A stretch of 32,000 nucleotides of DNA from an uncultured Desulfobacterales bacterium (GCA_964647905.1 CAZYJR010000030.1:5042-37041); one strand, 5' to 3'; shown: positions 7,091 to 30,763, counted from the first letter of the stretch. A program made the numbers and translations. Notes: generated by a model from the letters alone, not told the origin.

Positions 7091-7162
7091 CTCGTTCCTC
7101 CTTGTCTGCTGTTCTCTTGCTTCTTATGTACGTTCTAGTGAAGCCTCCGCGTGAGGGGTTGC

Positions 7163-7633: not shown

Positions 7634-7674
7634 CTTGTTCCTCCGGTAAGAAAAGCCCGCTCTCGAGCCAGTGT

Positions 7675-8541: not shown

Positions 8542-8603
8542 GGGTTCCTCCTATTCTCTTTCATATCCGATTGGAGCGGCCGTGGAGGCCGCAGTCTTGC
8601 GGG

Positions 8604-9167: not shown

Positions 9168-9179
9168 TTATTCCACCCT

Positions 9180-9830: not shown

Positions 9831-9895
9831 GGCGTTCTCCGTGAAATGAGGATTATGCCAGAAAACATTTCTCCGGGTAAAGCACTTCGGGGCTG

Positions 9896-11134: not shown

Positions 11135-11163
11135 TAGTCGGTGCTCCCTTCGGCTTTGCTCCC

Positions 11164-12819: not shown

Positions 12820-12842
12820 ATCGAACCTCCGTGCTTGAAAAG

Positions 12843-12871
12843 CCGCCGCCCGGCGGCAAACCGGGCGGCGG
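12843..12871 (-). terminator. Perfect 11-bp GC hairpin between the UbiD-like gene and the CoA-ligase gene, followed by CUUUUC; possible attenuator or mRNA-stabilising element
   Basis: CCGCCGCCCGG-7 nt-CCGGGCGGCGG read directly from the sequence. It sits 9 nt after the UbiD stop and about 20 nt before the ligase Shine-Dalgarno. Confidence 0.3.
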
Positions 12872-12880
12872 TCTAAAGGT

Positions 12881-14281: not shown

Positions 14282-14329
14282 AAACCCTTCTCCCTCCCTT
14301 TTTGAATTCTGTTTAACAATGGTTGCCCC

Positions 14330-15412
14330 TTATTTGATCTTCTTGCCGCTGACCAGCCCTGCCACAATGTGCTCAAGGGCGGATTTCTTTGGTTTGGATA
14401 CGGGCTCCCTCTGCCTGTGGCCCCAGACCGTCTCGGGCCGGCTCTGGAGGATCAAGACCCTGCCTGCAGCCGGCATGTCCTTGTCTATGGCCCACTCGAT
14501 GTCCATGGGTTTTCCGTAGTGCTTCTCTATGAGCTTGCCCACCCGGGCGAGCTCCACCACGTCCTCGTCGATCATGCACTGGTTGTTTCGCCTCTCCTGT
14601 GGGATCTCGTGCCTCTCCACCTCGTTGGTCTCCGGGTTGGCCGTGTACAGGCACTCCTTGGGTGAGATCTTGCGCTTTATTATCTCCAGGGTGACCTTGC
14701 TGACCACGAAGTGGTCCGGGGTGCACTCGCCGCTCACCACGCTCTCGCCGAACCCCCAGTTGGCGTCTATCACTATGGTGGAGGGGTCCCCGGTGGCGGG
14801 ATTGATGGTGAACATCACCCCCGCGGTCCAGGAGTTGGCCATCTTCTGGATGCCCACCGAGATGCCCACCGCATCGTGGGGGAAACCCATTCGCGCCCGG
14901 TAGGCGATGGCCCGGGGAGTGAACAGGCTGGACCAGCATTTGCGAACGTGCTCCAGGACGTTGTCCACCCCCCTGACCCACAGGAAGGTCTCCTGCTGGC
15001 CGGCGAAGCTCGCATCCGGCAGGTCCTCGGCCGTGGCGCTGGATCTCACCGCCACGGGTACGGCGGGGACGTGGCACTGCTCGGAGAGCCTCCTGTAGAA
15101 CTCCCCTATGTAGTCCTCTATCTCTATACTGACCGGCGCCCCCTCTATGAGCTCCCTCACCTCCCTGCTCGCCTTCTCTCCCGTATTTGTGTCCTCCGCC
15201 CTGACTCCTCCCAGGATCCTGTTGATCTCCTCGCGGATGCCGGTTTCCTTCAGGAACCTGTAGTAGGTCTCGGTGGTGACGGCGAACCCCGGGGGGACGG
15301 GGATGCCGGCCTTGAGGAGCTCTCCCAGGCTGGCGTTCTTCCCTCCCACCCGCGGGACGTCGTTCATGTCGCATTCCTGGAACCAGAGCACGTAATTCAT
15401 GCGCTCTTTCAT
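14330..15412 (-). CDS. ppsB: Phenylphosphate synthase beta subunit-like (PEP synthase N-terminal ATP-grasp / PPDK_N domain protein)
   Basis: 360 aa. PPDK_N pattern: VPRVGGKNASLGELLKAGIPVPPGFAVTTETYYRFL...VAVRSSATAEDLPDASFAGQQETFL. Its start is 6 nt after the ppsA stop. Confidence 0.8.
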   Translation of the reverse strand: MKERMNYVLWFQECDMNDVPRVGGKNASLGELLKAGIPVPPGFAVTTETYYRFLKETGIREEINRILGGVRAEDTNTGEKASREVRELIEGAPVSIEIEDYIGEFYRRLSEQCHVPAVPVAVRSSATAEDLPDASFAGQQETFLWVRGVDNVLEHVRKCWSSLFTPRAIAYRARMGFPHDAVGISVGIQKMANSWTAGVMFTINPATGDPSTIVIDANWGFGESVVSGECTPDHFVVSKVTLEIIKRKISPKECLYTANPETNEVERHEIPQERRNNQCMIDEDVVELARVGKLIEKHYGKPMDIEWAIDKDMPAAGRVLILQSRPETVWGHRQREPVSKPKKSALEHIVAGLVSGKKIK

Positions 15413-15418
15413 TGGATA

Positions 15419-17257
15419 CTACCTCTCGATCTGTACATGGCCGGTGTTGCCGTCCACCTTGATATGCATGCCCGTCTTGATGATCGAGGTGGCGTGGCCC
15501 GTCCCCACCACCGCGGGCATACCGTACTCGCGGCACACAATGGCCGCATGGCACATGATGCCGCCCACATCGGTGACAGCGGCCCTGATCTTCTGGAAGG
15601 CGGGCGCCCATGACGGCGACGTGGTGGGCGCCACCAGGATCTCGCCGTCCTTTAGCTGATCCACTTCCTTTACGGACCTGCACACCCTGGCCACGCCTTC
15701 CACCGAGCCCGGGGAGCCCGCAAAGCCGGTGAGCTCGGTGACCTTGTCCGGGTCTCCGATCTCCCGGACCTTGGCCCAGGCGGACATGCTCTCGTTGGTG
15801 ACCCCCCAGAGGACTATGGTGAAAGGCTCGGTTATGGTTTCCGGAGGGGTCCCTACGGCTGGCGGCGGTGACCATTGCCTGAACTTCTCGTAGACGCCCT
15901 TGCGCCACTCGATCTCCTTGGGCCAGTAAGAGGGCCCCCTTGGCTTGCTCCCGGTCGCCCAGGCGGTCACAACGTCCCACAAGGCGTCCTTGATTTCCGA
16001 GCGCTTGAAGAACCAGACGTCCTCTATGTCCTTGATGAACTCAAAGTCCTTGAGGATCGCTGCCACCTCCCTGACCTTGTTCCAGAAAATGGAGTGGAAC
16101 CAGTGCTCCACGTAAAAGAGGTGGTTCTCCACGTAGGGGAAGACCAGCTCGGAGGTCCCCTGGAGCTGGTCGAATGTCTGCTTGTCCTCCTCGGTCGAGA
16201 GCAGCTCCCTGTACTCCTTCCGTATCCTCTCCCGCTCCTCCTTGATCCTTTCCACCGGCCGATCTATGGACTGGCCCTGCTGTATTTTTTCCACGTAGAC
16301 CCGAATGGAGTTCATGGGGACGTTGAGTTCGTCCAGCCAGCAGGCGTCATGGTGGTACCACCCCGTCCCTGTGGAGACATAGAACCACGGGTTCTTCGCC
16401 TTTTCCCACGCCTGCACCCAGGTCCTGCCGTTATCCGACTTTTCCAGGTCCGCCAGGGTGTCCCGGACGTCGCGGCTCTCCAGGATCTTTCCCGCCAGGT
16501 CCAGGTCCACGGCGAGGCGGGCGAGCTTCTTCAGCTCCTCGTCCGGCTGGTAGATGATCACATCGATTCCGCCCACCATCTGGGTGATGCGCTGGAGCGG
16601 GATATCCGGGAAGGCCTTGGTGCAGAAGTCGACAAAGGTGACATAAGACGCATAGCCCAGGTTCAGGAACTCGAAGTGGTACTGCCAGCAGAGGATACCC
16701 ATGTCCAGGAGCTTGTCGTAGGCCCGGAGGAGCTCGTAGCCCTTGGACTTGCCCAGTCCTTCGGTAACCACGGACATGTCCTCCATCTCGGGCAGGCGGG
16801 GGATCTCCAGGGCTTCGAGCTCCTTGATCAGCTCCTTCATCTTTTCTTCCCACTTGTCGTGGAGCTCGTCCCAGTGCTCGTAATAGTAACCCGCACGCTC
16901 CATGAAAAGCGGCACCCGCTCTTCCACCTGCTTGGGATCGGAGACAGGGACTGGGGTGATGTAGACGTTTCCGTTGATGATGCGGTGATCCACGCCCAGG
17001 GCCGGCGGGACCATGAAGATCCTGGTATTGAACTGGCTCAGCGCCAGGAACCAGGCCTCGTCCCAGATGATGTCGAACGGATACATGGGCTCCGGGTAAT
17101 GGAGGCCGTCATTGAACCAGAACATGTTGTTCTCGTACTCTTCGCGCTCCTTGTCCTCTGTGGTGAACTGGTAGTGGTAGGGGTACATCCTCTCCCACCC
17201 CTCGGTCCCCGGGATGGTCTCCACCTCGTGAGGGTTGGGAAACTTGGGCTCGGCCAT
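15419..17257 (-). CDS. ppsA: Phenylphosphate synthase alpha subunit-like (substrate-binding domain plus C-terminal phospho-histidine swivel domain), copy 1
   Basis: 612 aa from MAEPKF (17257), which has an AGGGAGGTG Shine-Dalgarno; the track ORF extends to 17413. The C-terminal PEP-utilising mobile domain carries the catalytic His context TDVGGIMCHAAIVCREYGMPAVVG. Confidence 0.8.
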   Translation of the reverse strand: MAEPKFPNPHEVETIPGTEGWERMYPYHYQFTTEDKEREEYENNMFWFNDGLHYPEPMYPFDIIWDEAWFLALSQFNTRIFMVPPALGVDHRIINGNVYITPVPVSDPKQVEERVPLFMERAGYYYEHWDELHDKWEEKMKELIKELEALEIPRLPEMEDMSVVTEGLGKSKGYELLRAYDKLLDMGILCWQYHFEFLNLGYASYVTFVDFCTKAFPDIPLQRITQMVGGIDVIIYQPDEELKKLARLAVDLDLAGKILESRDVRDTLADLEKSDNGRTWVQAWEKAKNPWFYVSTGTGWYHHDACWLDELNVPMNSIRVYVEKIQQGQSIDRPVERIKEERERIRKEYRELLSTEEDKQTFDQLQGTSELVFPYVENHLFYVEHWFHSIFWNKVREVAAILKDFEFIKDIEDVWFFKRSEIKDALWDVVTAWATGSKPRGPSYWPKEIEWRKGVYEKFRQWSPPPAVGTPPETITEPFTIVLWGVTNESMSAWAKVREIGDPDKVTELTGFAGSPGSVEGVARVCRSVKEVDQLKDGEILVAPTTSPSWAPAFQKIRAAVTDVGGIMCHAAIVCREYGMPAVVGTGHATSIIKTGMHIKVDGNTGHVQIER

Positions 17258-17607: not shown

Positions 17608-18567
17608 ATGCTCAACTTCAACCAACTGCGCATCTTCTATTTCGCCGCCAAGCACCTCAGCTTCACAGAGGCTGCGCGGCGTCTCTTCATAACCCAGCCT
17701 GCAGTGACCGCTCAGATAAAGCACCTGGAAGAGCACTGCAATCTCAAGCTCTTCAGGAAGAGGGGCCGCAGGGTCTGCCTTACCGAGCCGGGGGAGGCGC
17801 TCTTCGAGTACGTCAAAAGGGTCTTCGAGTACGAGCGGGAGATCGAGGACGCGATCGAGGAGCTGCGGGAGCTCAAGCGCGGGGCCCTCAAGATAGGCAC
17901 CACCAAGACCTACGCCCGGCACTTCATGCCTCTCCTGATCACCGCGTTCCACGAGGCCCATCCCGGGATCCGCATCCACCTGGATGAAGGGAGCTCCCTG
18001 GACATGATCCGAAGTCTTTTGGAGCTCAGGAACGAGGTGGCGGTGATCGCGCAGGCCGGCGGGGACCACCCGGATGTCCTTTTCACGCCCTTCAGTCACG
18101 AGGAGATGGTGGTGATCCTTGCCCCCGGCGACCCCCTGGCTCGCCGCCGGCGCCTTTCCCCTGCCGAGGTCGCAGCCCGGCCTATCATCATGAAGGAGGC
18201 CGGTTCAGGGACCCGAAAGGTGGTTAACGAGCTCTTCGAGAAAGCGGATTTGGCCCCCGAGGTCCTCATGGAGACCAGCAACACGGAGTTCATCAAGCAG
18301 TTGGTGATGCGCGGGGAGGGGGTCTCCATCCTGGTGAGGGAGGCGGTGGCCCAGGAGCTCAGGGAAGGCAAGCTGGCCTCGGCCGCCATAAAGGGCCCCG
18401 AGATTTTCCTGGATGTGAGCATCGCTCACCTGAGGGACCAGCACTTCTCCCCCCCGGCCCGCGCCTTCCTGGACATACTGGCAAGACTCAAGCCCGCAGG
18501 CTCGTCCAATGTGGGCATCGGCGCCCTTATGGCCCGCATCCTCGCAGGCAACCGCCGCACCGCCTGA
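17608..18567 (+). CDS. LysR-family transcriptional regulator (copy 1), divergent from the pps operon
   Basis: 319 aa. N-terminal LysR HTH (LNFNQLRIFYFAAKHLSFTEAARRLFITQPAVTAQIKHLEE) plus a LysR substrate-binding domain. Confidence 0.9.
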   Translation: MLNFNQLRIFYFAAKHLSFTEAARRLFITQPAVTAQIKHLEEHCNLKLFRKRGRRVCLTEPGEALFEYVKRVFEYEREIEDAIEELRELKRGALKIGTTKTYARHFMPLLITAFHEAHPGIRIHLDEGSSLDMIRSLLELRNEVAVIAQAGGDHPDVLFTPFSHEEMVVILAPGDPLARRRRLSPAEVAARPIIMKEAGSGTRKVVNELFEKADLAPEVLMETSNTEFIKQLVMRGEGVSILVREAVAQELREGKLASAAIKGPEIFLDVSIAHLRDQHFSPPARAFLDILARLKPAGSSNVGIGALMARILAGNRRTA

Positions 18568-18754: not shown

Positions 18755-18886
18755 TTAGGAGTATGACTCAATACATCACAGGGCTTTCTTCAAGTGTGGC
18801 CGGCATGATAAGTTGAGAAAAGCAGAATGACGAGCAACTGTGATCGGCCCGGGTTTAACAGGCCGAGTAGAGAGGAGCCTTTCCGG

Positions 18887-20152
18887 ATGACGCTTGAGGT
18901 CCATAACACCATGAGCAGGAGGCTGGAGCCCTTCGAGAGCCGGGAGCGAGGCGTGGTCAAGCTATTCACCTGCGGGCCTTCGGTTTACAGGCCTCCTCAT
19001 GTGGGCAACCACCGGACGTTCCTTTTTGAAGACATCCTCCAGAGGTACCTGGAGCATCTGGGATACCGGGTGGATCGGGTCATCAACCTGACCGACGTGG
19101 AGGACAAGGCCATAGAAGAGGCCTCCAAGAAAGGGGTGAGCATAGGGGATCTGACCCGGCCTGTGGAGGACCGATTCAGGCGGGAGGCCGGCCTTTTGGG
19201 GCTCGAGCTTCCCGGGTACCTCCCGCGGTCTTCGACCTGCGTCGGCCAAGCGGTTGAGATCATCAAGGCCCTGCTGGAGCGCGGCTGTGCCTACCGGCAC
19301 GGCGGGGACATATTCTTTGATCCCTTGAAGTTCAAGGGGTTCGGGCGACTCTACGGCCTGGACATGAGCAGGTGGCCCAAGAAGAGGCGGCGGTTTCGAA
19401 AGGACACCTATCCGGGCAGGCGGTGGAACCTCGGAGACTTCATATTGTGGCACGGATACCGGCCCAAGAGAGACGGGGCCTTCTACTGGGAGACCGAGCT
19501 GGGCAGGGGGCGCCCGGCCTGGAACATCCAGGACCCGGCCATCATAACCGAGCATCTGGGATGGAGGATAGACGTTCACTGCGGCGGGGTGGACAACCTA
19601 TACCGTCACCATGACTACACAATAGCCGTGGTCGAGGCCCTGAGCGGGGAGACCCTGGCCCCTTACTGGCTCCATGGCGAGCACGTGCTGGTGGAGGGGG
19701 CCAAGATGTCCAAGAGCAAGGGGAACATAGTGTACTTGGAGGATGTGCTGGAGCGGGGCTTTGAGGCCGAGCATATCCGGTTCCACCTGATCTGCCGGCA
19801 TTACCGGGAAAAGCTGAATCTGACCTGGGAGCGGGTGGAGGCATCGGCCCGAAAGCTCGATCGCTTCAGGGAAACGGTAAAGGCCTTGGGAATAGGGCCC
19901 CTGGGCCCCGGCTCGGTCGAGGAGGACTCTTCGGGCGAAGCGGACCCGGAGCTTGTCTCCCGATTCGAGCAAAGGATGGACCGCGACCTGGATGTGGCAG
20001 GGGCCTGGGATGCGGTGGAGCAGAGGCTCGGGGAGCTTCTGGCGGCCAAAAGAGACGGCCACCTGAATCCGCCCGAGCTGGAATCGGTGAGGAGGGCCCT
20101 GGCACGCATCGACCGGGTCCTCGGCGTCATTCATCCATTGCCGCCGCCTTGA
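18887..20152 (+). CDS. Class-I aminoacyl-tRNA-synthetase-like protein, cysteinyl-tRNA synthetase paralogue (divergent, shortened)
   Basis: 422 aa from MTLEVHNT (GAGAGGAG Shine-Dalgarno upstream; the track ORF starts at 18827). It is collinear with CysRS: LFTCGPSVYRPPHVGNHRT (HIGH region), GRPAWNIQD, VHCGGVDNLYRHHDYT, and KMSKSKGN (KMSKS). See findings for the altered residues. Confidence 0.75.
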   Translation: MTLEVHNTMSRRLEPFESRERGVVKLFTCGPSVYRPPHVGNHRTFLFEDILQRYLEHLGYRVDRVINLTDVEDKAIEEASKKGVSIGDLTRPVEDRFRREAGLLGLELPGYLPRSSTCVGQAVEIIKALLERGCAYRHGGDIFFDPLKFKGFGRLYGLDMSRWPKKRRRFRKDTYPGRRWNLGDFILWHGYRPKRDGAFYWETELGRGRPAWNIQDPAIITEHLGWRIDVHCGGVDNLYRHHDYTIAVVEALSGETLAPYWLHGEHVLVEGAKMSKSKGNIVYLEDVLERGFEAEHIRFHLICRHYREKLNLTWERVEASARKLDRFRETVKALGIGPLGPGSVEEDSSGEADPELVSRFEQRMDRDLDVAGAWDAVEQRLGELLAAKRDGHLNPPELESVRRALARIDRVLGVIHPLPPP

Positions 20153-21212
20153 TCGCCTCCCGCAGGGCCTTCTGATCCAGGGGAGGCGGCTGTGCGCCGG
20201 GTCTTGCCTCAAGCTCTATGGCCCCCTCCGGGCAGCCGGTCGAGCAGACACCGCATCCTATGCAGCGGTCGAGATCCGATTCAGGAGGCCCGCCGTTCAT
20301 CTCGAGAAGGGCGCCGGCCGGGCACCGCTCCACGCAGGTTCCGCACCCGGTGCAGAGATCCCGGTCCCAGACCGGGATGAACCCCGAGTTCATGGCCAAG
20401 CCGGGCTTGGAATCGGCGAGGGCGGTCTTCAGGAGCACACAGTGGCAGGGACAGCAGTTGCAAAGGAAGTCGATCTTCTGCCTGTTCAGCGTGGCATGGA
20501 CCAGCCCGGCCTCTTCGGCGCGTCTGACTATGTCCTTGGCTTCTTCCTTACCGACCCGGCGTCCCATGCCTCGGTCTATTACGAACTGCGCGCCCGCTCC
20601 CAGTTGGAGGCATACCTCGTCCGGGTTGCCGCAATGGTCGCTCTCGTCCAGCAGCCGGGCCTGGTGCCTGCAGTAGCAGGTGGCCACGGCCAGGGGGTCG
20701 CACTCCTCGATATATGAAATGACCTGGTCATAGGTGTGGATGGTGCTGCCCGCCTGGATCTTCCTGCCGACAGGTATGACCCTGGAGGTGGGAAATTTTT
20801 CTCTCGGCGGTCCGGTGCGGGCGTCAAAGGCTTCTTTGTACTCCTTGACCAGTTTGGCGATCCTCCGGTCCCTGTCAGTGGCCGTACCCCGCATGAACTG
20901 ATACTCGAATATCCCGGGGATCAGGGGCAGGGTGGCGTAAAGGGTCTCTCCTTCCTTTGCAATGGAAAAGCAGAGCCCCTTTTCAGCCATGCCCTCCAGC
21001 AAGACCCGGACCTCGCTCTCCTCCCTTCCTGTCTCCTCGGCTATTCGTGCCGCAGTATTGAGCCCCCTGGGCATATTATTGAAGACATCGGCCTCGTCCA
21101 GGGTGAAGAGCTCCTCTGCCAGCGCGTAGAACTCCGGTATGTCCATGCCCCTGTACCTGCCGCCTCTTTGGGCCAGCGTCTCGCAGAGCCGTTTGTAGAC
21201 TTCTCGAGCCAT
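20127..21212 (-). CDS. Cys-rich 4Fe-4S dicluster domain protein with an N-terminal winged-helix-like region
   Basis: 361 aa. Two ferredoxin motifs (CTGCGTCVERCP, CIGCGVCSTGCP) plus extra Cys clusters (CYCRHQ...HCGNPDEVC, LCNCCPCHC). Its start is 3 nt after the UPF0261-2 stop. Confidence 0.8.
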   Translation of the reverse strand: MAREVYKRLCETLAQRGGRYRGMDIPEFYALAEELFTLDEADVFNNMPRGLNTAARIAEETGREESEVRVLLEGMAEKGLCFSIAKEGETLYATLPLIPGIFEYQFMRGTATDRDRRIAKLVKEYKEAFDARTGPPREKFPTSRVIPVGRKIQAGSTIHTYDQVISYIEECDPLAVATCYCRHQARLLDESDHCGNPDEVCLQLGAGAQFVIDRGMGRRVGKEEAKDIVRRAEEAGLVHATLNRQKIDFLCNCCPCHCVLLKTALADSKPGLAMNSGFIPVWDRDLCTGCGTCVERCPAGALLEMNGGPPESDLDRCIGCGVCSTGCPEGAIELEARPGAQPPPLDQKALREAIKAAAMDE

Positions 21213-21215: not shown

Positions 21216-22430
21216 CTATCCTCCTTTCCGGGTGCCCAGCATCTCGTCCATGAGCCGGGCGGCGAGATCGGCGAAGGTCGGGTCGTTTATATGGGACTCG
21301 GTCTCGGTTAGGGGTATACCGGGGTCGAGATCCCTCTTGAGCCTTTCCACAAGGGCCTCGCTTACCCCCGGGTCATGGAGCGGCCCGTCCGGTCCGTCCG
21401 CCTCAGACCAGCCGCCCAGGGGTATCAGGACCCGCACTTCGCCGGGCCGGCGGTTGAGCTTTTCCACCAGTTGTCCGGCGATATTCAGTGTCTCGTCCGT
21501 GCTCAGGCGCACGGCCGAGCGGAAGTCGTAGAAGAAGACCGGGCGTTCCTTGTACTCGGCCGGCACCGTCTCCCGGGTGAATTCCAGGACTGCGCAGTCC
21601 AGGCCTCCCGGGACCACCAGGCGGGGCACCGACCGGCCCGGCACAGGTTCCAGCCTCTCCGGGCCGATTCCACGGCAGTACCCGCCCTTGAGCTCGTCGG
21701 CCAGCTCGTGCGTAGCAAGGTCCAGGATGCCCTGGAACCTCCCCTCGGCGGCCAGCTCCTCCATTGCCATGCCGCCGGTGCCGTTGGCGTGAAACGCGAT
21801 CACCTCGTATCCCATGGCCTCCAGTCGCGCCTTGACCGCCTCGGCTGCGGTTGTTATGAACCCGAACATGGTGAGCGCCACCCTGGGCCTATCGGCCCCC
21901 GGTTTCCACTCGGCCCCGGCCATGCCGCAGACCGCTCCGGCCGCCTGGTCCAATATCGGGCCCAGGAGGCTGTTGACACCGAGTATGTCCGCTACACTGT
22001 GCATCATGGTGACGTCCCTGGTCCCTACGACCGCTGACATGTCCCTGCTGGCCACGGTGGAGACCAGGACCTTGGGGACGCCCACGGGCAGCGCCTTCAT
22101 GATGCCGGCGGCAAGATTGGTCCCGGTGCCCCCGCCGGCCGAGATCATGCCCTGGATTAGTCCGCGCCGGTAGAGGTCCAGGACCAGGTTGCGACCTGCA
22201 TCCATCACCGCCGTAAGGGCCTGATCGCGGCCCCTGCCGCCCTGCGGCAGGGAAAGCACCACGCCGGTGTATAGATCATGGTCCGGCGGGAAGGGCGAAG
22301 GCCCCTTGGTGCCCGCGTGTATTGTGATCGTACGGAAACCGCGGGTCCGGATCCGCTCCTTGAGGAACGAGTGCTCCTCGCCCTTGGAGTCAAAGGTCCC
22401 GAGAACGGCAATGGTCTTTTCCTTTTCCAT
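21216..22430 (-). CDS. UPF0261 family protein (Tm-1-like ATP-binding domain), copy 2
   Basis: 404 aa from MEKEKTIAVLGTFDSKGEE (AGGAGGAG Shine-Dalgarno; the track ORF extends to 22520). Same family pattern as copy 1: SAGGGTGTNLAAGIMKALPVGVPKVLVSTVAS...TMFGFITT...EVRVLIPLGGWSEADGPDGPLHDP. Confidence 0.7.
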   Translation of the reverse strand: MEKEKTIAVLGTFDSKGEEHSFLKERIRTRGFRTITIHAGTKGPSPFPPDHDLYTGVVLSLPQGGRGRDQALTAVMDAGRNLVLDLYRRGLIQGMISAGGGTGTNLAAGIMKALPVGVPKVLVSTVASRDMSAVVGTRDVTMMHSVADILGVNSLLGPILDQAAGAVCGMAGAEWKPGADRPRVALTMFGFITTAAEAVKARLEAMGYEVIAFHANGTGGMAMEELAAEGRFQGILDLATHELADELKGGYCRGIGPERLEPVPGRSVPRLVVPGGLDCAVLEFTRETVPAEYKERPVFFYDFRSAVRLSTDETLNIAGQLVEKLNRRPGEVRVLIPLGGWSEADGPDGPLHDPGVSEALVERLKRDLDPGIPLTETESHINDPTFADLAARLMDEMLGTRKGG

Positions 22431-22565
22431 TCGCTCCTCCTGTGTTCGGTAAACATAGGGCAAGGACGGTTGGACGGTCAAAAGAATTCTGGAAGGCGCC
22501 TGGGCGCCCCTTGACATCACTGCGGGACCGAGCTAGCTCATGATAATGCCTGAAGGAGGTATGAG

Positions 22566-23090: not shown

Positions 23091-23807
23091 CTAGGCCGTC
23101 AGGCTGTTTGCTCGGCCTGAGAAAATATCTTCCGCCATTAGGCTCAAGTCGGCGAAAAAGAGTTCATCATCGGGCTTCGGCTCGATCCACTTGATGGCTG
23201 AGAGTTCCTGCCTTGGAAAGGATTTCAAAAGGTCGTAAAGAACGACCGGATCAAGCCCCGCCTCCTTGGACGAGGCCTCACGGAGAATAGCGGCCCAGTT
23301 GAATCTTTTTGTTTTTGCCAATGCCCATAAGTCAATGACATCCTTAGGTTCTATTCGATATAAGGCAGAGAGCTTATTGGACAAGATATTTCGCCAACTG
23401 TCAATTCGCCCGAGAATGTCATTCCACTCAATATCTCCATAGTGAGGAGCGATGTCATTAACCAGATCAATCCTGAGAACAATATTTCCATGTTCAGGGG
23501 AGTCCTGCTCAACAAAGAGCTGGACATAATCCTCGTACCTCATAATCCTGTCGGTAAGCAAGGTAAACGGCTCGTGTCTGCTCTCTTTTTCCAACTCCTC
23601 ATACAATCGCTCAGACCATTTGGGAAACTCAGGGTCACTATTCACAAAAAGATCAAGGTCATCCGAATAGCGGACAGGGTTATAATGTCTGCTTATTGCG
23701 GTACCACCGGTTAGATAAAAGGGAGCGCTGATACGTTTCACGATGGAGAGGATTCCATCCTGAAAGGGATAAAGGCTCTCCTCGTAATATCCGCCGTATT
23801 CGCTCAT
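23091..23807 (-). CDS. Nucleotidyltransferase AbiEii/AbiGii-family toxin (type IV toxin-antitoxin, DUF1814-like)
   Basis: 238 aa. NTase motif FYLTGGTAISRHY...RYSDDLDLFV, with size and layout of the short AbiEii family. Confidence 0.75.
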   Translation of the reverse strand: MSEYGGYYEESLYPFQDGILSIVKRISAPFYLTGGTAISRHYNPVRYSDDLDLFVNSDPEFPKWSERLYEELEKESRHEPFTLLTDRIMRYEDYVQLFVEQDSPEHGNIVLRIDLVNDIAPHYGDIEWNDILGRIDSWRNILSNKLSALYRIEPKDVIDLWALAKTKRFNWAAILREASSKEAGLDPVVLYDLLKSFPRQELSAIKWIEPKPDDELFFADLSLMAEDIFSGRANSLTA

Positions 23808-24066
23808 AACGCTTTCTTTGCCCCGGGAAACGAAGCTTTGCGATTCTTTCCGGAGTAAGGAGCCTTGTAACCCTCTCCTTACCCATGAGTTCCAGGATAT
23901 CGTGCCAAGGGAGCCTTTCCAAGGCTCTTATGAAAGTCCTCTCTTGATCAAACGGGCCTTCTTTTTCACGCTCTCCGAGCAGGACCTCGAGCAGCCTGTC
24001 CTCCCGGACATTATAGTCCCAACATAGGGATTGTAGGATTCTGCGTTTGCGGTCGGGGGTGATCAT
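23680..24066 (-). CDS. Small upstream ORF, putative cognate antitoxin or regulator of the AbiEii-like toxin (family not recognised)
   Basis: 128-aa ORF immediately upstream on the same strand, with the same low-GC composition. Its last 128 nt overlap the toxin ORF in another frame, so its 3' end is uncertain. Confidence 0.45.
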   Translation of the reverse strand: MITPDRKRRILQSLCWDYNVREDRLLEVLLGEREKEGPFDQERTFIRALERLPWHDILELMGKERVTRLLTPERIAKLRFPGQRKRYERIRRILRGEPLSLSGWNPLHRETYQRSLLSNRWYRNKQTL

Positions 24067-24223
24067 ACGGAAACGAACTCATGAGCTTCTCTGGCCTTCT
24101 CGACCATAGCGACTCTTTACTTCCGGGGTTCCAACTTGGAGTCAAAACAGTACGCAGCACAAGACCCGAAGTCAAGAAAACACGAGCACAATTGAAAGGC
24201 GGCGGGCTTTGCTTTACATGCCG

Positions 24224-24232
24224 CCCGGAATC
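24224..24232. repeat. Right copy of the 9-bp direct repeat CCCGGAATC flanking the toxin-antitoxin islet
   Basis: Exact match to 23061-23069. Confidence 0.25.
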
Positions 24233-24280
24233 ATACTAGAGTTTATGACATTAGGGAAATCGGGTTAGGGGTCCATTTCA

Positions 24281-25219
24281 ATGCTCAACCTGAACCAGCT
24301 AAGGGCCTTTTATGAGACCGCCAAGGGCGGGAGCTTCAGCCAGGCCGCGGGCAAGCTCTGCGTGAGCCAGCCGGCTGTGAACACCCAAGTTCGGCTCTTC
24401 GAGCGCGAGTGCGGCCTGAAGCTCTTCGTCAAGAAGGGGAGACTGCTCCACCTGACCGACGAGGGCAGGGCCCTTTGCGAGTTGGCCGCGGATCTCTTCG
24501 AGCAGGAGCGCAGGATAGAAGAGCTGGTGGATCAAATGAAGGGCCTCCGCACCGGGGCCCTGCGCATAGGGACGGCCAGGACCTATGCCAGACACTTCAT
24601 GCCCTATCTCATAAGGGGCTTTCACAAGGTCTACCCGGGCATACGCATCAATCTGGAGGAAGGCAGCTCCCAGGAGATGCTCCGGTCCTTGACGGAGCTG
24701 AAGAATAACCTGGCCGTGGTGGCCTGGGTCGAGGGTTATTCAGGGGTTCGGTTCCTGCCCTTCTGCAGGGAGGAGGTGCTCCTGGTTCTATCGCCCGGCC
24801 ACCCCCTGGCGGGCAAGGGCCGGGTCAGTGCGGAGGACCTTCAGAGGGAGCCTGTGATCATGAAGGAGCGCGGTTCAGGAACCAGGGGGCTGGTCGACCG
24901 CCTGTTCCAATCCCTGGGGACATCTCCCAACATACTAATGGAGAGCAGTGACGCGGAGATGATGAAGCTCTTGGTCCAACACGGCGAGGGCATGGCATTC
25001 CTGGTCAGGGAGGCGGTCTCCAGGGAGCTCGAGGCAGGGGGCCTCGTTTCCCTTCCCTACGAAGGCGGCCCGCTGGAGCTGGAGGTCTGCATTGCCCACC
25101 CAACGGATACCGAGCCATCACCCGCAGCCACGGCCTTTCTCGGCATGCTCGGCCGCGCGTGCGGCCAGTACAAGGCGCCGGGTCCGCTTGCCGGGGTCAA
25201 GGAGGGGCTTCCCGCATAG
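24281..25219 (+). CDS. LysR-family transcriptional regulator (copy 2), paralogue of copy 1
   Basis: 312 aa, collinear with LysR-1 along its whole length (LNLNQLRAFYETAKGGSFSQAAGKLCVSQPAVNTQV...GTARTYARHFMPYLI...YPGIRINLEEGSS...). Confidence 0.9.
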   Translation: MLNLNQLRAFYETAKGGSFSQAAGKLCVSQPAVNTQVRLFERECGLKLFVKKGRLLHLTDEGRALCELAADLFEQERRIEELVDQMKGLRTGALRIGTARTYARHFMPYLIRGFHKVYPGIRINLEEGSSQEMLRSLTELKNNLAVVAWVEGYSGVRFLPFCREEVLLVLSPGHPLAGKGRVSAEDLQREPVIMKERGSGTRGLVDRLFQSLGTSPNILMESSDAEMMKLLVQHGEGMAFLVREAVSRELEAGGLVSLPYEGGPLELEVCIAHPTDTEPSPAATAFLGMLGRACGQYKAPGPLAGVKEGLPA

Positions 25220-25407
25220 CGGGAAAGCCCCTTGGAGACTATTGCCTTTCGGGCCCGGGCTCCTTCAGGGGCCAGAAGTCGAAGCAGCCGGTGTAAATGG
25301 CTATGACCGGGAAGGTGAAGCTCAAGAGGGCCGTTGCCAGCCAGAGTTCGTGTTCATACCCGGGCGGTCCGCCGGGAAGGCCTGCATCTCCTTTCCCCGG
25401 GGCCTTT

Positions 25408-27249
25408 TCAGGCCCTCTCCAGGATCGTTACCAATCCGCTCTCTCCGTCTATCCTGATCAGGTCCCCGGTCTTGATGAACGAGGTGGCCCTGCCGGTCCC
25501 CACCACCGTCGGCAGGGCATACTCCCGGGCGATGATGGCCGCATGGCACATGGACCCTCCCACGTCCGTGACCGCGCCCTTGATCTTGGTAAAGGCGGGA
25601 GCCCAACTGGGGGCCGTGGTGCTCGCCACCAGGATCTCGCCGTCCTGGAGCTCTGCCAGGCCCTCCACGGTCCGGATGACCCGGGCCCTGCCTTCGGCTA
25701 CGCCCGAAGAGCCGGGCGCTCCGACCAGCTCGTTCTCCTCGCCCTCGCCCGCCGGTTCACTGCCGGCAAGCCACTGCTTGAGCACATCCGTTGTAACGCC
25801 CCAGAGCATTATGGTGAAGGGCTCGGTGACCACCTCCGGGGGTACGCCCAGGGCCGGGGGCGGGCTCCACTCCCTGAATTTCTCCAGCACCTCCCTGCAC
25901 CACCTGATCTCCGGCGGCCAATAGGAGGGCCCTCTGGGCTTCACTCCGGTAGCCCAGGCGGTCGCGTAATCCCACAGGGCGTCCCGTATCTCCCCCCGCT
26001 TGAGGTACCAGATGTCCTCCTTGTCCTCCATGAATCCGGCCCCCTGGAGTATGGCCGCCACTTCCCTGACCTTGTTCCAGAAGACGCTGTGGAACCAGTT
26101 CTCCACGTAGAAGATGTGGTTCTCCGCGTAGGGGTATACGAGGCGGGCAATGGAGAGGGTCTTGTCAAAGGTCTCCCGGTCCTCAGGGGTTTGGATCAGC
26201 GAGCGGTACTCATCCACCACCTTGTCCCTCTCCCGGACCAGCCGTCCCGTGGGCCGGTCGATCTCCTTTCCTGACTTGAGGGCGTTTACGTGCATCCGGA
26301 TGGAGGTTATTGGGACATCCAGTTTGTCGTTCCAAGAGGCGTGGTGATGATACCAGCCAGTTCCGGTGGAGATGTAGAACCAGGGGTATCTTGCCTTTTC
26401 CAGCTCGGCCAGCCATTTCCCGCCTTCAGGCTTCTTCTTCAGCTCCTCCATCAGGGTATCCGCTTCCAGCGGCTCCAGGAGCAGATCTTCTATCCCCAGC
26501 TCGAGACCCAGCTTGGCCAGCCTTATCAGCTCCGCATTGGGCCTCATGATCATGGCGTCTATGCCTGATACCATTTTGGTCACCGTCTCCATCGGGACAT
26601 TGGGGAAGATCTGCCGGACGGTGTCGCTGAAGGTGAGAAAGGCCGCATAGCAGAGATTCAGCATCTCGAAGTGGTACTGCCAGCACTTGAAGCCCATATC
26701 AATCAAATTGTCATACTTGCGCATGAGGTGGTATCCGCTCCCGGTGCCCCTGTTCTCGAACACGATGGACTTGTCCTCCACCTCTGGGAGGGGCTGAAAG
26801 GATACCGCCTCGAGCTGGTCCAGGAGCCCCTTCATCCTCCCTTCCCATTCGGAGTAGAGGCTGTCCCAATTGTCATAGTAGTACCCGGCCCGCTCCATGA
26901 ACACGGGCACCCGGGCCTCCACCTCTTTCGGGTCGTCGATGCCTATGGGAGTGATGTACACATAGCCGTTTACGATCCGGTGCTCGATACCCTTTGCCGG
27001 CGGCACCAGAAAGGTCCTGGTGTTGTTCTGGGACAGGGCCAGGAACCAGGCCTCGTCCCAGATCAGGTCAAAGGGCGGGTGGGGCTCGGGATAGTGGAGC
27101 CCGTCGTAGTACCAGAGCTGATTGCTCTCATGTGCCGCCCGCTCCGGGTCGTCCTTGGTGAAGAGGTAATGATAAGGATACATCCTCTCCCAGCCCTCGG
27201 TTCCCGGTATGGTGGGGACATCGTGCGGATCCGTGAATTTTGCAGCCAT
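25408..27249 (-). CDS. Phenylphosphate synthase alpha subunit-like protein, copy 2 (orphan, no adjacent PpsB)
   Basis: 613 aa, collinear with copy 1 over its full length; I estimate well over half the residues are identical by eye. The catalytic His context is conserved (TDVGGSMCHAAIIAREYALPTVVG). An AGGAGG Shine-Dalgarno lies 8 nt upstream. Confidence 0.8.
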   Translation of the reverse strand: MAAKFTDPHDVPTIPGTEGWERMYPYHYLFTKDDPERAAHESNQLWYYDGLHYPEPHPPFDLIWDEAWFLALSQNNTRTFLVPPAKGIEHRIVNGYVYITPIGIDDPKEVEARVPVFMERAGYYYDNWDSLYSEWEGRMKGLLDQLEAVSFQPLPEVEDKSIVFENRGTGSGYHLMRKYDNLIDMGFKCWQYHFEMLNLCYAAFLTFSDTVRQIFPNVPMETVTKMVSGIDAMIMRPNAELIRLAKLGLELGIEDLLLEPLEADTLMEELKKKPEGGKWLAELEKARYPWFYISTGTGWYHHHASWNDKLDVPITSIRMHVNALKSGKEIDRPTGRLVRERDKVVDEYRSLIQTPEDRETFDKTLSIARLVYPYAENHIFYVENWFHSVFWNKVREVAAILQGAGFMEDKEDIWYLKRGEIRDALWDYATAWATGVKPRGPSYWPPEIRWCREVLEKFREWSPPPALGVPPEVVTEPFTIMLWGVTTDVLKQWLAGSEPAGEGEENELVGAPGSSGVAEGRARVIRTVEGLAELQDGEILVASTTAPSWAPAFTKIKGAVTDVGGSMCHAAIIAREYALPTVVGTGRATSFIKTGDLIRIDGESGLVTILERA

Positions 27250-27267
27250 CGTGCTTCCCTCCTTCTC

Positions 27268-27280
27268 TATTCATTGAATA
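27268..27280. promoter_or_regulatory. Palindrome TATTCA-T-TGAATA immediately 5' of the ppsA-2 Shine-Dalgarno
   Basis: 6-bp arms are exact reverse complements with a 1-nt spacer, 19-31 nt upstream of the ATG. Confidence 0.25.
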
Positions 27281-27534
27281 AGAAAGGTCATTGCTTCGGC
27301 CTCACCCTTTTGAAGGAGCAGCAAAGCACAGCAGGTAATGAGCGGACAGGCCGGGTCGTGCCGGATGAGGGGCTATGACGCGCGGGTCTTGCAGTCGGAG
27401 ACTCGGGCTCACTCCGGTTTCCGCCGTACGGTCTCCACTCAGGGCGGAGAGCGGGCCCCGGCCGACCTTAATATTACCTTAAAAGTAGGAATTATGGATA
27501 CTTGAAGGGCCATGGCCCGGCTCTCCTCCGGGAA

Positions 27535-27568
27535 AGGCCTGCGGCGGCGCTGGGGCCGTCGCAGGCCT
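27535..27568 (-). terminator. 9-bp GC stem (AGGCCTGCG / CGCAGGCCT, 16-nt loop) 14 nt after the Mo/W-enzyme stop codon; weak T-tract (UUCCC)
   Basis: Read directly from the sequence. It lies between the acetylene-hydratase-like gene and the ppsA-2 leader. Confidence 0.3.
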
Positions 27569-27581
27569 GTTTCGGTCGGTC

Positions 27582-29791
27582 TCAGCGGGTCAACGGGGTC
27601 TCTCCGGAGAAGTCCTTCACCTTGTAGACCTTGCACTGGTAGGTCCTGAGCGGCCAGGAGCCCAGGGCCTCGTCGCAGGTCTCTTCGGTGCTCGAGGTGC
27701 AGACGTTGATGTTGGACAGCCACACCCCGTGCAGCCACGGCTCCTCTCCCGGCATCTCCGGGTACCACCACCCGTGCTGCCCGTGGACCACCCTGGGATC
27801 CAGGTCTTGGTCCAGGATCGCCTTCTGCATCACTCTTCCGTGCTTGGTCTCTATCCAGACCCAATCGCCGTCGGCTATGCCGAACTCGGCCGCCGTGTCC
27901 GGGTGGATCTGCATCCTGGCCCAGGGATAACGCTTCCTCAGGGTCTCCACCTGCCGGTGCTCGGAGTGGAAGAACGGGTGGAAGCGCCCGCCCGTAATCA
28001 GCACCAGCGGGTAGTCGCTCGCCAGCTCGGGGGTACGGGAGAAGCTCTCCGGCGGTTCGTGGTATCGGGGGAGGGGGTCGTAGCCCAGGGTCTCCATAAC
28101 GGTGGAGTAGAGCTCGATCTTGCCGGTTGGAGTCCCGAATCCGGTCTTTTCATACTTCTTGTACTCGTATTTTTCAGGAGCCCATTTCCCCATTTTCACC
28201 AGCTCTTCGAATGTCTTGCCCATGGGGGAGAGCCTGTAGTCGTAGTAGTCCTCTACGGTCTCCCAGGGCCAGTACTCCTCCTGTCCCAGCCTGATGCCCA
28301 GGCCCCGCCAGAAGTCGAAGTCGTTTCTCCTGTCGTACATCCCGGGTATGGACGCGGGAAGTGCAGCTTCCCCGGCCCTTATCACCGGTGTGGTGTTGTG
28401 GTAGTTCCACAGGAAGGAGCGCTCCAGCCACAAGGCGCTCGGGAGCACGTAGTCCGCCATTTGAGCGCTCGGCGTCATGAAGTAGTCGACCACCACGTAG
28501 AGATCCAGGCTCTTCAGGGCCTTGTGCACCAGCTTGGTATCGGGGATGGTCACCATTGGGTTGGAGGAAAGGGTGATCAAGGCCCGCACCGGGTAGGGGT
28601 CGGAGTAGGCGATGGCCTTATAGAGCGAAGGCGCCGGGGCCATGCAGGTGTAGCCGAACATGTCGCAGCGTTTGCCCCATACCTTCTCCACGTTGCTCTG
28701 TACCAGCTCATAGCCCGGCCATGTATAGAGCCTGAACTGGTTGCCCAGGATCTTCTTCCTCTGCTCCTTGGGCAGGGCCTCGGCCAGCTCTATCTCGTGC
28801 TCCGTGATGAAGGGGGCGGCCCCATGAGCTCTTCTCCGCCCTTTACGTCCACGTTGCCCACTATGGCCGATATGATGTGCCTGGCGGCCAAGGCCCCGTA
28901 GGAGTTGGGTTGATGGGCCACGCCCATCCCCTCCATGGCGCAGGACGGCGTCTCTGTGGCGAACATCCTGGCCGCCTTTACTATCTGCTCGCCCGGGACC
29001 CACGTGATCTCCGAGGCCTTGTCCACCGGGTATTCGGCCGCCCGCTCAGCCAGCTCCTCGAACCCGTGGCACCAGTTGGTCACAAAGTCCCGGTCGTAGA
29101 GTTTCTCCTCGATGATCACGTTGATCATGGACATGAGTAGGGCGCAGTCGGTCCCGGGCCGGATCCTCAGCCACAGGTCCGCGGCCTCTGCGGATTCCGA
29201 CTTCCTGGGGTCCACCACGATCAGCTTGGTCCCTCTCTCCTTTGCCGCCATCACCCCCTCCCATATGGTCTGGTGAGTGTGGGGCGGGTTCCGGCCGATC
29301 AGCATGACGCACCTGGTGCTGCCCAGCTTCTCCGTGTTCATCCAATAGGGCCACCAGCCGTAAAGGGTGGTGGCCACCACCGCTGAGTTGCCGTGGCAGA
29401 TCTGGGCTTGGCCGCACTGGTTGGGGCTGCCGAAAAGGTTCAGGAACCTCGAGTTGAGCTCTTCGTAGGTCCTGCTGGTACCTGCGGTCACGCCCAGGGT
29501 TTCAGCGCCGTAGCGGTCCTTGAGCTCCTGGAGCTTCCACGCGATCTCGTCCAGGGCCTCGTCCCAGGTTATGCGCTGCCACTCGTTCGCCCCGCGGTCA
29601 CCCCGTCTCTTCAGCGGGTAGTTCAGACGGCCCGGGTGATAGAACCTCTCCAGGTCCGAGCAGTACTTGCGGGGGCAGGCCTTGATGGGCGATCTCTCGA
29701 TCTTGACCAAGCGGTTGTCTTCCACTTCCACTGCCAAGCGGCACCTGGGCTTGCACCAGAAACAGATGGAGTGCTTCACTTCCTTGGGCAT
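27582..29791 (-). pseudogene. Cytoplasmic Mo/W-bis-PGD oxidoreductase, acetylene-hydratase-like subfamily, interrupted by a single -1 frameshift (or assembly indel) at about 28812-28823
   Basis: Two overlapping track ORFs (28790-29851 and 27582-29003) together make one collinear protein of about 736 aa. The N-terminal 4Fe-4S motif is CFWCKPRC...C, and there is no twin-arginine signal. The conserved ICHGNSAV segment holds a candidate metal-ligand Cys. The join lies at ...GNVDVKGGEELMG|(A/P)APFITEHEIELAEALPKEQ, within the G4/C5 run ATGGGGCCGCCCCCTTC. Start chosen at MPKEVKH (29791) with a GAGGAGGTG Shine-Dalgarno. Confidence 0.75.
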
Positions 29792-29877
29792 TACATCACC
29801 TCCTCGGGTAGGGTTTATAAGCGGGAGCTCCATCTCCCGGGCTGAGGTCAAGCTCTCACATGCCGTTGCCGCTGATC

Positions 29878-29891
29878 AAATCAATTGATTT
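29878..29891. promoter_or_regulatory. Perfect 14-bp palindrome AAATCAATTGATTT upstream of the Mo/W-enzyme gene
   Basis: The sequence is self-complementary. It is about 90 nt upstream of the start codon, in the AT-rich island of the divergent intergenic region. Confidence 0.3.
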
Positions 29892-29899
29892 TTCAGGAT

Positions 29900-29918
29900 C
29901 TCTAAGTTTTTCTTAGAG
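29900..29918. promoter_or_regulatory. Perfect inverted repeat CTCTAAG-TTTTT-CTTAGAG, 8 nt from the 14-bp palindrome
   Basis: 7-bp arms are exact reverse complements. Confidence 0.3.
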
Positions 29919-30013
29919 CCGGCCCCCGGTTCAGCGCCCTTTCCCCTGGACGGCCGGGGAAGGCGTGGGTATGGTTTGCATCAAGTCGGGTCCCATATCG
30001 GAGGAGCGCTCAA

Positions 30014-30763
30014 ATGCGGAGGGGTGAGGCGAGCCGTAGCACCGGGTGGTTCCCGGCCTTGATCCTCTTGGTTCAGGTGACGCTTATTGCCGCCTGCGGC
30101 GGGGACAGGCCTCCTGAGGAGATCCTGGGGAGGTGGATCACCGAGTCCCCACGCTGCCCGATGTGCGCCATGGAGATAGAAAGCGAGACCATCACCTTCT
30201 CAAGGGGCCTGAGTCACATCACCATAAACCCCATAAAGGACGTGGAACGCCGGGCGGAGGCAGGCAAAGTCCTCTACGAGATACACTACGAGGGGCAGGA
30301 CGGAGGGGACTTCGTTCTGAGTCTTTACTACTTTCCGGACCGGGACGTGATCCGGTTCAAGCATCAGAAGGAGATGCTCTGGGTCAGGGGCGAGGAGGAC
30401 CATGCCAATTTCCCCTTGCATTTTCCCGTTTCAAGAGATTTGCTGTGCTGCCGATGGAAAGTGAATAGACCCGACCGGCCTTCCGCCGCCCTCTTGCAAC
30501 TGGAGAATGGCTGTGGACGTGATCGTCACTCACAAGAACACCGACTTCGACGCAGCGGCCTCCGCCTTCGCCGCCCAGGTGATTTACCCGGGGGCCGTTA
30601 CCGTGTTGCCCGCCGACTTGAATCCCAACGTCAAGCAGTTCCTATCCATACACAAGGACCTGTTTGCCTGGTCCCTGCCCAGGGAGATACAGTGGGATCG
30701 AGTCAGCCGCCTGGTGGTGGTGGACACCAACGACTGGAAGCGTCTGGACGGTGTGAGGCTTGA
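30014..30763 (+). CDS. Small putative lipoprotein of unknown function (3' end uncertain)
   Basis: Signal peptide plus lipobox (WFPALILLVQVTLIAAC-GG). The first ~140 aa look protein-like. The last ~85 codons overlap the next gene out of frame and are Arg/Gly/Pro-rich, like off-frame translation. Confidence 0.4.
   Translation: MRRGEASRSTGWFPALILLVQVTLIAACGGDRPPEEILGRWITESPRCPMCAMEIESETITFSRGLSHITINPIKDVERRAEAGKVLYEIHYEGQDGGDFVLSLYYFPDRDVIRFKHQKEMLWVRGEEDHANFPLHFPVSRDLLCCRWKVNRPDRPSAALLQLENGCGRDRHSQEHRLRRSGLRLRRPGDLPGGRYRVARRLESQRQAVPIHTQGPVCLVPAQGDTVGSSQPPGGGGHQRLEASGRCEA

Follow-up and report, generated by a model that had tools for sequence, protein, structure and literature searches.

Probable decay of an accessory phenolic-activation module beside a phenol cluster in an uncultured Desulfobacterales bacterium

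Introduction

Does a second phenylphosphate synthase alpha protein that lacks a partner of its own and lies next to a molybdenum/tungsten (Mo/W) enzyme form a working route of aromatic activation, or is it what remains of one? This question is raised by positions 24281-29791 of a 32,000-nucleotide stretch of DNA from an uncultured Desulfobacterales bacterium (GCA_964647905.1, CAZYJR010000030.1:5042-37041; the whole stretch is called the window below), in which a gene for an acetylene-hydratase-like (AH-like) Mo/W-bis-pyranopterin guanine dinucleotide (bisPGD) enzyme (27582-29791, minus strand) is followed by a PpsA-type gene (PpsA2, 25408-27249, minus strand) and by a convergent regulator gene of the LysR type (LysR2, 24281-25219, plus strand). 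An initial annotation of this DNA had seen here a candidate module in which the Mo/W enzyme feeds a phenol-kinase-like protein. Our analysis indicates that the region is probably a decaying accessory copy of a phenolic-activation module beside an intact phenol pathway. The accessory module itself, as it can be traced in relatives, is uncharacterised but real. The phenylphosphate synthase that serves as reference is PpsABC of Thauera aromatica, reportedly described by Schmeling in 2004 and Narmandakh in 2006.

PpsA2 and its missing partner

PpsA2 (613 aa) and PpsA1 (15419-17257, minus strand), the corresponding protein of the main phenol cluster, show 58% identity across 606 residues and share the swivel motif GG(S/I)MCHAAI (GGSMCHAAI in PpsA2), the histidine of which is residue 569 in both; the presence of two PpsA-type proteins with a phospho-His motif was thus correctly recognised in the initial annotation. 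A histidine of this number is also cited for the T. aromatica PpsA (PMC7500099). The PEP-utilizers mobile domain (PF00391) is matched by PpsA2 at residues 535-605 (E = 7e-24), and the NCBIfam model NF006152 (PRK08296-type) scores 873 bits over residues 4-609 against an equivalog cutoff of 723 that PpsA1 passes as well, while the Pfam scan gave no match to PPDK_N (ATP-grasp) in the PpsA2 polypeptide. The best matches among solved structures (PDB 5hv1 and 5fbs; E = 5e-29, residues 506-610) are to members of the rifampicin phosphotransferase/phosphoenolpyruvate synthase family, in which a single polypeptide includes the ATP-grasp domain, and it is the His domain alone that aligns to PpsA2. In having a large N-terminal and central domain and the swivel His569, in lacking an ATP-grasp domain and in having a partner that is separately encoded in its orthologues, PpsA2 resembles the Thauera PpsA. 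The two window proteins had been said to diverge throughout their N-terminal and central region, but identity is as high as 70% in residues 1-100, falls to its lowest value of 42% in residues 201-300 and lies at 56-61% elsewhere, the swivel region (residues 501-613) being 61% identical. Taken together, these similarities point to a phenylphosphate synthase alpha isoenzyme whose acceptor would be phenol or a close phenolic.

An aniline-activating enzyme was considered as well. The phenylphosphoamidate synthase PasAB of Desulfatiglans anilini, a two-protein kinase of the PpsAB type that acts on a weak aromatic nucleophile and whose genes lie in a second cluster, provides a precedent for paralogous Pps-like systems, but its alpha subunit is just 26.7% identical to Pps-alpha (PMC7500099). 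With 58% identity to PpsA1 and a shared NCBIfam equivalog, PpsA2 is ruled out as a Pas-type enzyme. The published D. anilini reverse transcription PCR primers had no specific match in the loci retrieved, and the phenol-induced PpsA clade was not identified in this way.

The window contains one PPDK_N/ATP-grasp gene, PpsB1 (14330-15412, minus strand), and PpsA2 is without a cognate ATP-loading partner beside it or elsewhere in the window, both of which had been stated before. PpsA loci were surveyed with one genome per species (79 loci, annotated by tblastn and arranged in a neighbour-joining tree). PpsA2 falls in a clade of 19 sequences, the 18 others being 61-82% identical to it, and in all 16 loci that could be assessed the clade has a PpsB2 of its own, 15 times separated by no more than 193 nt and once (L004) 3 kb downstream; the other two loci end at contig ends too early for PpsB2 to be scored. 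These PpsB2 proteins are 57-100% identical to that of locus L083 and 38-42% identical to the window PpsB1. In the PpsA1 clade, by comparison, nearly all surveyed loci have a gene of the PpsB1 type (50-80% identity to PpsB1) behind the PpsA gene. No AH-like gene was found within 10 kb in any of the 18 PpsA2-clade loci other than the window. Orthologues that keep their own PpsB2 and do not adjoin a Mo/W gene largely undercut the idea of a shared module.

In two of the nearest relatives, L082 (81% identical) and L083 (82%), the gene order is p214, PpsA2 and PpsB2, followed further downstream in L083 by p367 and a convergent LysR gene; p367 also comes after ppsB2 in L016, as it does in L083. A piece of p367 can still be recognised in the window. 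With residues 317-360 of the L083 protein, tblastn gave a match of 82% identity at 25382-25251 (E = 1.4e-19), and the remnant as a whole (25239-25382, minus strand), which had been overlooked, comprises the last ~44-48 codons and the stop. It begins ~25 nt past the PpsA2 stop, ends just ahead of the 3' end of LysR2 and is collinear with L083, and when translated (GLPGGPPGYEHELWLATALLSFTFPVIAIYTGCFDFWPLKEP) it can be aligned with the C-terminal ends of p367 from L083 and L016. Since the p367 tail directly follows PpsA2, it is the scar of a ~2.3 kb deletion that took ppsB2 and the first ~85% of p367 in the window lineage, and the orphan state of PpsA2 is due to this removal of ppsB2 and not to one PpsB serving two PpsA proteins by design, as had been suggested. 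A conserved tail abutting PpsA2 in this manner is furthermore not explicable as an assembly artefact.

Other traces of the ancestral locus were not recovered. A tblastn search detected no remnant of ppsB2 or p214 anywhere in the window, and no ppsB2 is present within ~2 kb to its left or ~5 kb to its right, ~39 kb having been inspected overall. Remnants of ppsB2, p214, HAD, DUF89, HD and UPF0261 genes were sought in 25220-25407, 27250-27581 and 29792-30506, and the p367 tail was the only one found. DNA homology to L083, L082, L003 and L004 starts 0-20 nt upstream of the PpsA2 start, and in the three closest orthologue loci the gene that precedes PpsA2 is p214. The 332-nt spacer that separates the AH-like gene from PpsA2 in the window (27250-27581) has no homology to p214 and no blastn or tblastn match outside the organism's own contigs.

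PpsA2 itself is full-length and has a strong ribosome-binding site (GAAGGAGGG). It departs from the consensus at 3 of 183 near-invariant columns, compared to a median of 1 among its orthologues, which amounts to a weak excess of change in this test for degeneration. That the gene is intact and evolves only marginally faster than its orthologues suggests either that the loss was recent or that some residual use continues.

Among the accessory proteins of this lineage, which were traced in the loci L082, L083, L003 and L016, p367 (367 aa), encoded downstream, has ~10 hydrophobic segments and is predicted to be a ~10-transmembrane (TM) membrane protein, whereas p214, encoded upstream, is a soluble protein of 214 aa with a faint NIPSNAP match; relatives of p214 also adjoin 560-aa PpsA3/PpsB3 pairs. 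Neither p214 nor p367 belongs to a Pfam or NCBIfam family. The pairing of the PpsA2 clade with a divergent PpsB2, p214 and a ~10-TM protein would set it apart from the Thauera PpsABC, as does the deletion of PpsB2 in the window, and in the literature searched we did not find a second PpsA/PpsB lineage of this kind with its own p214 and ~10-TM protein. Multiple sets of Pps paralogues recur in sulfate reducers and syntrophs: a Desulfatiglandales metagenome-assembled genome has PpsA/PpsB pairs of the ~43% type and the PpsA2 type next to each other in divergent orientation (L006:5544-13000), and Syntrophobacter sp. SbD1 has two PpsA1/PpsB1 sets close together on the same strand (L029:5005-12979).

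The acetylene-hydratase-like gene

The AH-like protein aligns end to end with acetylene hydratase (PDB 2e7z; E = 1e-142, 39% identity) and has no signal peptide. It was accordingly right to describe it as acetylene-hydratase-like over its full length and signal-less, but the gene is not one intact open reading frame (ORF) and its start is probably the ATG at 29791, which has GGAGGTG ahead of it, and not 29918. The coding sequence is split into the ORFs 28790-29851 and 27582-29003, the first 333 codons and the 400-odd codons of the C-terminal part lying in different frames and the Pfam matches to Molybdopterin and Molydop_binding being divided between the two. The break is a deletion of 1 nt in ATGGGGCC^GCCCCCTTC at ~28817/28818 on the minus strand; the site, annotated at 28812-28825 as ATGGGGCC^GCCCCC, is one base short relative to the orthologues, which read ELMGPAPFITEHE and of which 25 intact ones give ELMGPAPF(I/V)TEHE. 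When the frame is restored a protein of 736 aa is obtained that is 80-85% identical to intact orthologues of likewise 736 aa, and none of the top-scoring matches is an intact protein of more than 85% identity.

The window sequence, frameshift included, is 100% identical over 8.3 kb in two Logan assemblies (SRR7048219 and SRR7048227; L001 and L002), and since two separately assembled runs carry an identical site a random sequencing error is unlikely. Programmed -1 frameshifting was rejected too, since the sequence G CCG CCC CCT does not fit the X XXY YYZ heptamer pattern and since the orthologues are simply one base longer. The gene in the window is thus a probable pseudogene judging from its reading frames, yet in relatives it is intact.

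The active site can nevertheless be compared with that of acetylene hydratase, the mechanism of which was reportedly described by Seiffert in 2007 and tenBrink in 2011. Like the enzyme of Pelobacter (Syntrophotalea) acetylenicus, the AH-like protein is monomeric, has no signal peptide and shows an N-terminal Cys4 [4Fe-4S] site and a Cys141 metal ligand, and in the alignment to 2e7z the residues C9, C12, C16, C46 and C141 are all kept. Unlike in acetylene hydratase the catalytic Asp13 is absent: KHSICFWCKPRC aligns with KHVVCQSCDINC, placing a Lys at this position, which bears out the earlier comparison of CFWCKPRC with CQSCDINC, and in the alignment the same Lys is found in every full-length clade member of at least 58% identity. 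The ring of residues around the acetylene pocket is likewise altered, Ile14, Ile113, Ile142, Trp179, Trp293 and Trp472 corresponding to Pro, Ser, His, Gln, Glu and His, respectively, the alignment at positions 179, 293 and 472 being uncertain by 1-2 residues. These substitutions of Asp13 and of the hydrophobic pocket (to Lys, His, Gln, Glu and Ser) rule out a hydration of acetylene in the manner known from 2e7z, in keeping with the doubt already voiced about it.

The window protein carries the full signature C9, C12, K13, P14, C16, C46, R48, S113, C141, H142, Q179, E293 and H472. Within the family, K13, P14, R48, S113, C141, H142, Q179, E293 and H472 are near-invariant down to 58% identity, except that R48 is replaced in a few members and H472 is Arg in a few, and below 57% the signature dissolves. 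No NCBIfam model is specific to this clade, and in the literature searched we found no description of so sharply delimited a group.

Genomic neighbourhoods of the AH-like clade

If the window copy is damaged, its intact relatives may still tell with which genes it would belong. A metagenome scan yielded 80 AH-like loci. Those with 4 kb of flank or more were scored for neighbours up to 10 kb away, the clade (identity of 58% or higher, n = 32) being set against distant AH-like loci of 48-53% identity (n = 21). PpsA-like genes were found near 13 of the 32 clade genes and near none of the 21 distant ones (Fisher p 6e-4), and the same contrast was seen for genes of the UPF0261 family (16/32 against 0/21, Fisher p 4e-5), PpsB-like genes (11/32 against 0/21), UbiD (9/32 against 0/21) and LysR regulators (14/32 against 1/21). 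In three loci (L093, L103 and L106) an AH-like gene is followed by LysR and LysR1 genes, both marked minus, and by PpsA, which is the gene order of the window minus strand, and two of these (L093 and L103) go on to PpsB and UbiD. PpsA comes directly after the AH-like gene in L116, and the order UbiD, UPF0261, AH-like is found in L113-L115, L122 and L124. Intergenic distances go down to ~100-350 nt (L113-L115, L124, L116 and the window).

Particular subtypes of the accessory genes accompany the AH-like gene. UPF0261b of the window (21216-22520, minus strand) is 55-65% identical to the UPF0261 proteins encoded upstream of AH-like genes in L093, L098, L103, L121 and L136, and to the one of L089, which is encoded on the other strand, and it is only 34% identical to UPF0261a of the phenol cluster (9896-11134, minus strand); the AH-linked UPF0261 of L121 correspondingly shows 59% identity to UPF0261b and 32% to UPF0261a. 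LysR2, in which both HTH_1 and LysR_substrate are intact, is indeed a paralogue of LysR1 (17608-18567, divergent from PpsA1), as had been proposed, the two being 50% identical. Compared to the LysR of L084, which serves as reference for the type lying convergent and downstream of AH-like genes, it shows 55.5% identity, and it matches the LysR after PpsA2-PpsB2-p367 in L083, whose position it shares, at 53%.

These associations support the view that the AH-like clade and PpsA-type kinases would belong together. The pairing postulated for the window hence recurs as a linkage in relatives, but with the frameshift and the ppsB2 deletion a working module is not supported for the window itself. As to its novelty, we found no paper in the literature searched that links an AH-like protein or molybdopterin oxidoreductase with phenylphosphate, the two co-occurring in reference lists only, which agrees with the earlier remark that no such pairing was known.

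The UPF0261 proteins are Tm-1-like and ATP-binding, and the UPF0261a type is near-constant in the phenol clusters of the 79 genome loci. Phosphohydrolase genes recur around the AH-like genes, with ARMT1/DUF89 upstream in 9 loci as well as HAD, HD and NUDIX genes (for example L121:1640-2554, L135:12298-13098 and L093:14065-14694). Their recurrence may point to a phosphorylated substrate or to the supply of prenylated flavin mononucleotide and dimethylallyl phosphate (prFMN/DMAP) for the UbiD carboxylase.

Possible function of the clade

A hydratase-type reaction had been considered for the Mo/W enzyme, but one clade member argues for redox chemistry instead. This protein, P0169, has the full K-P-S-C-H-Q-E-H signature and is fused at its N-terminus to Fer4_20 and Pyr_redox_2 (GltD-like) domains in three contigs, a Rosetta-stone indication of a redox enzyme with NAD(P)H-dependent electron transfer. 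The fused part is a GltD-like NAD(P)H/FAD/[4Fe-4S] module (locus L170:10001-13606, NCBI GCA_034414595.1), and the gene has as its neighbours a second Mo-bisPGD gene, two HGD-D genes (2-hydroxyacyl-CoA dehydratase or BCR-like) and an ARMT1/DUF89 phosphatase gene. In the window, no electron-input partner is encoded adjacent to the AH-like gene.

Among characterised enzymes, the catechol dehydroxylases are reported to be the nearest to acetylene hydratase (PMC7028382), and those of Eggerthella and Gordonibacter (Dadh, Cldh, Dodh and Hcdh) are bis-molybdopterin guanine dinucleotide enzymes that act on hydroxyls of aromatic rings (PMC7028382). The AH-like clade is similar in that its context is phenolic, and through this published statement a functional analogy may be drawn. 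The clade would then consist of redox enzymes acting on a hydroxylated aromatic and joined to the phenol kinase/carboxylase route. Of such reactions the most conservative would be the reductive dehydroxylation of a dihydroxybenzene, whereas hydroxylation of an arene would be the most exciting and the least likely one. In the literature searched we found no paper that deals with a step of this kind.

We tentatively propose, with less than even confidence, that the clade represents an uncharacterised cytoplasmic Mo/W redox enzyme which would catalyse a new anaerobic aromatic step coupled to aryl-phosphate synthase and UbiD clusters, and that the window copy was recently inactivated. Candidate reactions under this proposal are the conversion of dihydroxybenzenes to phenols and, more radically, a water-dependent conversion of benzene to phenol. 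Enzymes for anaerobic benzene hydroxylation are still not known (PMC10570749), and how the phenol-carboxylating system of sulfate reducers and iron reducers is made up is described as unresolved (PMC6114531). By virtue of its polar signature, its dedicated UPF0261 and LysR partners and its repeated linkage to pps and ubiD genes, the clade is a candidate missing enzyme of anaerobic phenolic, and possibly arene, metabolism, and intact orthologues such as P0121 and P0133 are directly testable targets.

Interpretation of the locus

A history of the region can be outlined that would reconcile these observations. The ancestral order was p214, PpsA2, PpsB2, p367 and a convergent LysR gene, as kept in L083, and the complete system would have transferred the beta-phosphoryl group of ATP from PpsB2 onto His569 of PpsA2 and from there to phenol or a related phenolic. 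The ~2.3 kb deletion left PpsA2 without its co-evolved ATP-grasp partner, and the AH-like gene upstream of it was knocked out by the loss of 1 nt. On its own PpsA2 is probably without activity, PpsB1 serving it weakly at best. In intact relatives the Mo/W enzyme presumably works alongside the PpsAB/UbiD/UPF0261 clusters, its most likely role being to interconvert a hydroxylated aromatic and the phenol used by the kinase/carboxylase route. Loss of the accessory module would be tolerated because the main PpsA1B1 pathway is complete, and the simplest reading is that selection has been relaxed on an accessory pathway that is redundant or no longer used, in which PpsA2 and LysR2 have not yet degraded.

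Several points weigh against this history. The three assemblies stem from a single study, and a systematic consensus error at the GC-rich site of the frameshift is conceivable. The missing ppsB2 could be encoded elsewhere in the genome, of which ~39 kb were visible. PpsA2, full-length and with its strong ribosome-binding site, is just 1-2 points less identical to outgroups than its orthologues are and may still be in use, and a recruitment of subunits across clusters is documented in D. anilini, where carboxylase subunits are concerned (PMC7500099). With regard to the linkage of the clade, 12 of the 32 clade loci have none of PpsA, PpsB, UbiD and UPF0261, some of the contigs counted are near-duplicates, and it was the AH-like gene through which the loci were chosen.

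The last of these points bear on the possibility that the adjacency of Mo/W and PpsA genes reflects mere co-residence in aromatic-catabolism islands, the substrate of the Mo/W enzyme being unrelated. The PpsA partners of the AH-like clade indeed come from several clades of PpsA (the 560-aa, ~44% and ~53% types), other neighbours are heterogeneous and include ABC transporters besides the HD, HAD, NUDIX and ARMT1-like phosphatases, and no clade member occurs in any of the 79 genome loci that were selected through PpsA. The variation in gene order can be read both ways, since a linkage that holds over at least 8 different architectures, with gaps as short as those given above, is not readily ascribed to a shared island, and neither is the strong enrichment over the distant control group or the fact that dedicated UPF0261b and LysR subtypes travel with the AH-like gene. 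Co-residence is therefore a rather unlikely explanation.

We regard it as distinctly unlikely that the window holds a working module in which PpsB1 loads PpsA2 in trans and the Mo/W enzyme makes a phenolic hydroxyl or another weak nucleophile for PpsA2. The intact PpsA2 with its His569 and ribosome-binding site, a swivel region 61% identical to that of PpsA1, the precedent in D. anilini and the linkage of the AH-like clade to PpsA/B genes in relatives would all fit such an arrangement, but the Mo/W gene is frameshifted in the window, and PpsB2 was lost through deletion and is not primitively absent. PpsB2 is furthermore ~41-42% identical to PpsB1 and kept in every assessable orthologue, which suggests a pair-specific co-evolution; given this strict co-occurrence and a PpsB1/PpsB2 identity of 42%, efficient loading of PpsA2 by PpsB1, and with it a designed shared-subunit system, is unlikely.

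It is similarly improbable that the module is functional, with the frameshift a consensus error or minority allele and ppsB2 elsewhere in the genome, for even though the indel lies in a G4C2/GC5 run, every assembly is from one project, the Mo/W gene is, indel aside, 85% identical to intact orthologues with all signature residues kept, and the L004 PpsB2 shows that the partner need not be adjacent, two separately assembled runs agree over 8.3 kb, the p367 tail abutting PpsA2 cannot be an artefact and ~39 kb revealed no ppsB2. On the preferred reading of a decaying accessory copy, the orphan PpsA2 and the Mo/W gene of the window should hence not be treated as a working pathway.

The main phenol cluster and other features of the window

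The remaining genes were assigned from the ORF listing together with Pfam and NCBIfam scans. The main cluster (4727-17257) lies on the minus strand and reads, in the direction of transcription, PpsA1, PpsB1, the UbiD carboxylase (12881-14281), which scores as phenylphosphate carboxylase beta, an AMP-forming ligase (11164-12819), UPF0261a, a PpsC-like CBS protein located between UPF0261a and UbiX (called as 216 aa in L167), UbiX (8604-9167), HcrB (7675-8541), HcrC (7163-7678) and HcrA (4727-7090). By its gene content this is a complete anaerobic phenol route, and the presence of PpsA1/PpsB1, the PpsC-like CBS protein, UbiD, UbiX, the ligase and HcrABC likens it to the Thauera phenol system. The true start of PpsA1 is the ATG at 17257 and not the TTG start of a 664-aa ORF. 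Scans for sigma-70 promoters and terminators over 24000-30600 gave sites that were no commoner than in shuffled sequence.

Next to the Hcr genes, 2367-4405 encodes a phenylacetate-CoA-ligase-like protein (AMP-binding_C_2), an HTH-cupin regulator and a tripartite ATP-independent periplasmic (TRAP) transporter, DctPQM, which runs past the window start. The ligase-like gene resembles ORF14 of the Thauera phenol cluster, listed as phenylacetate-CoA ligase (PMC6114531). Between LysR1 and UPF0261b (18827-21212) are a gene for a 441-aa protein similar to class-I tRNA synthetases (CysS-type catalytic domain) and one for a 361-aa protein whose C-terminal part has two 4Fe-4S motifs, neither of which has a counterpart in any related locus. 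Beyond UPF0261b follow an ArfB gene and then a low-GC island (23091-24066; 49% GC compared to about 62%) with an AbiEii-type nucleotidyltransferase toxin gene and an upstream ORF of 128 aa, a probable antitoxin. The island separates the accessory module from the remainder of the cluster and is probably a mobile insertion tied to the rearrangement.

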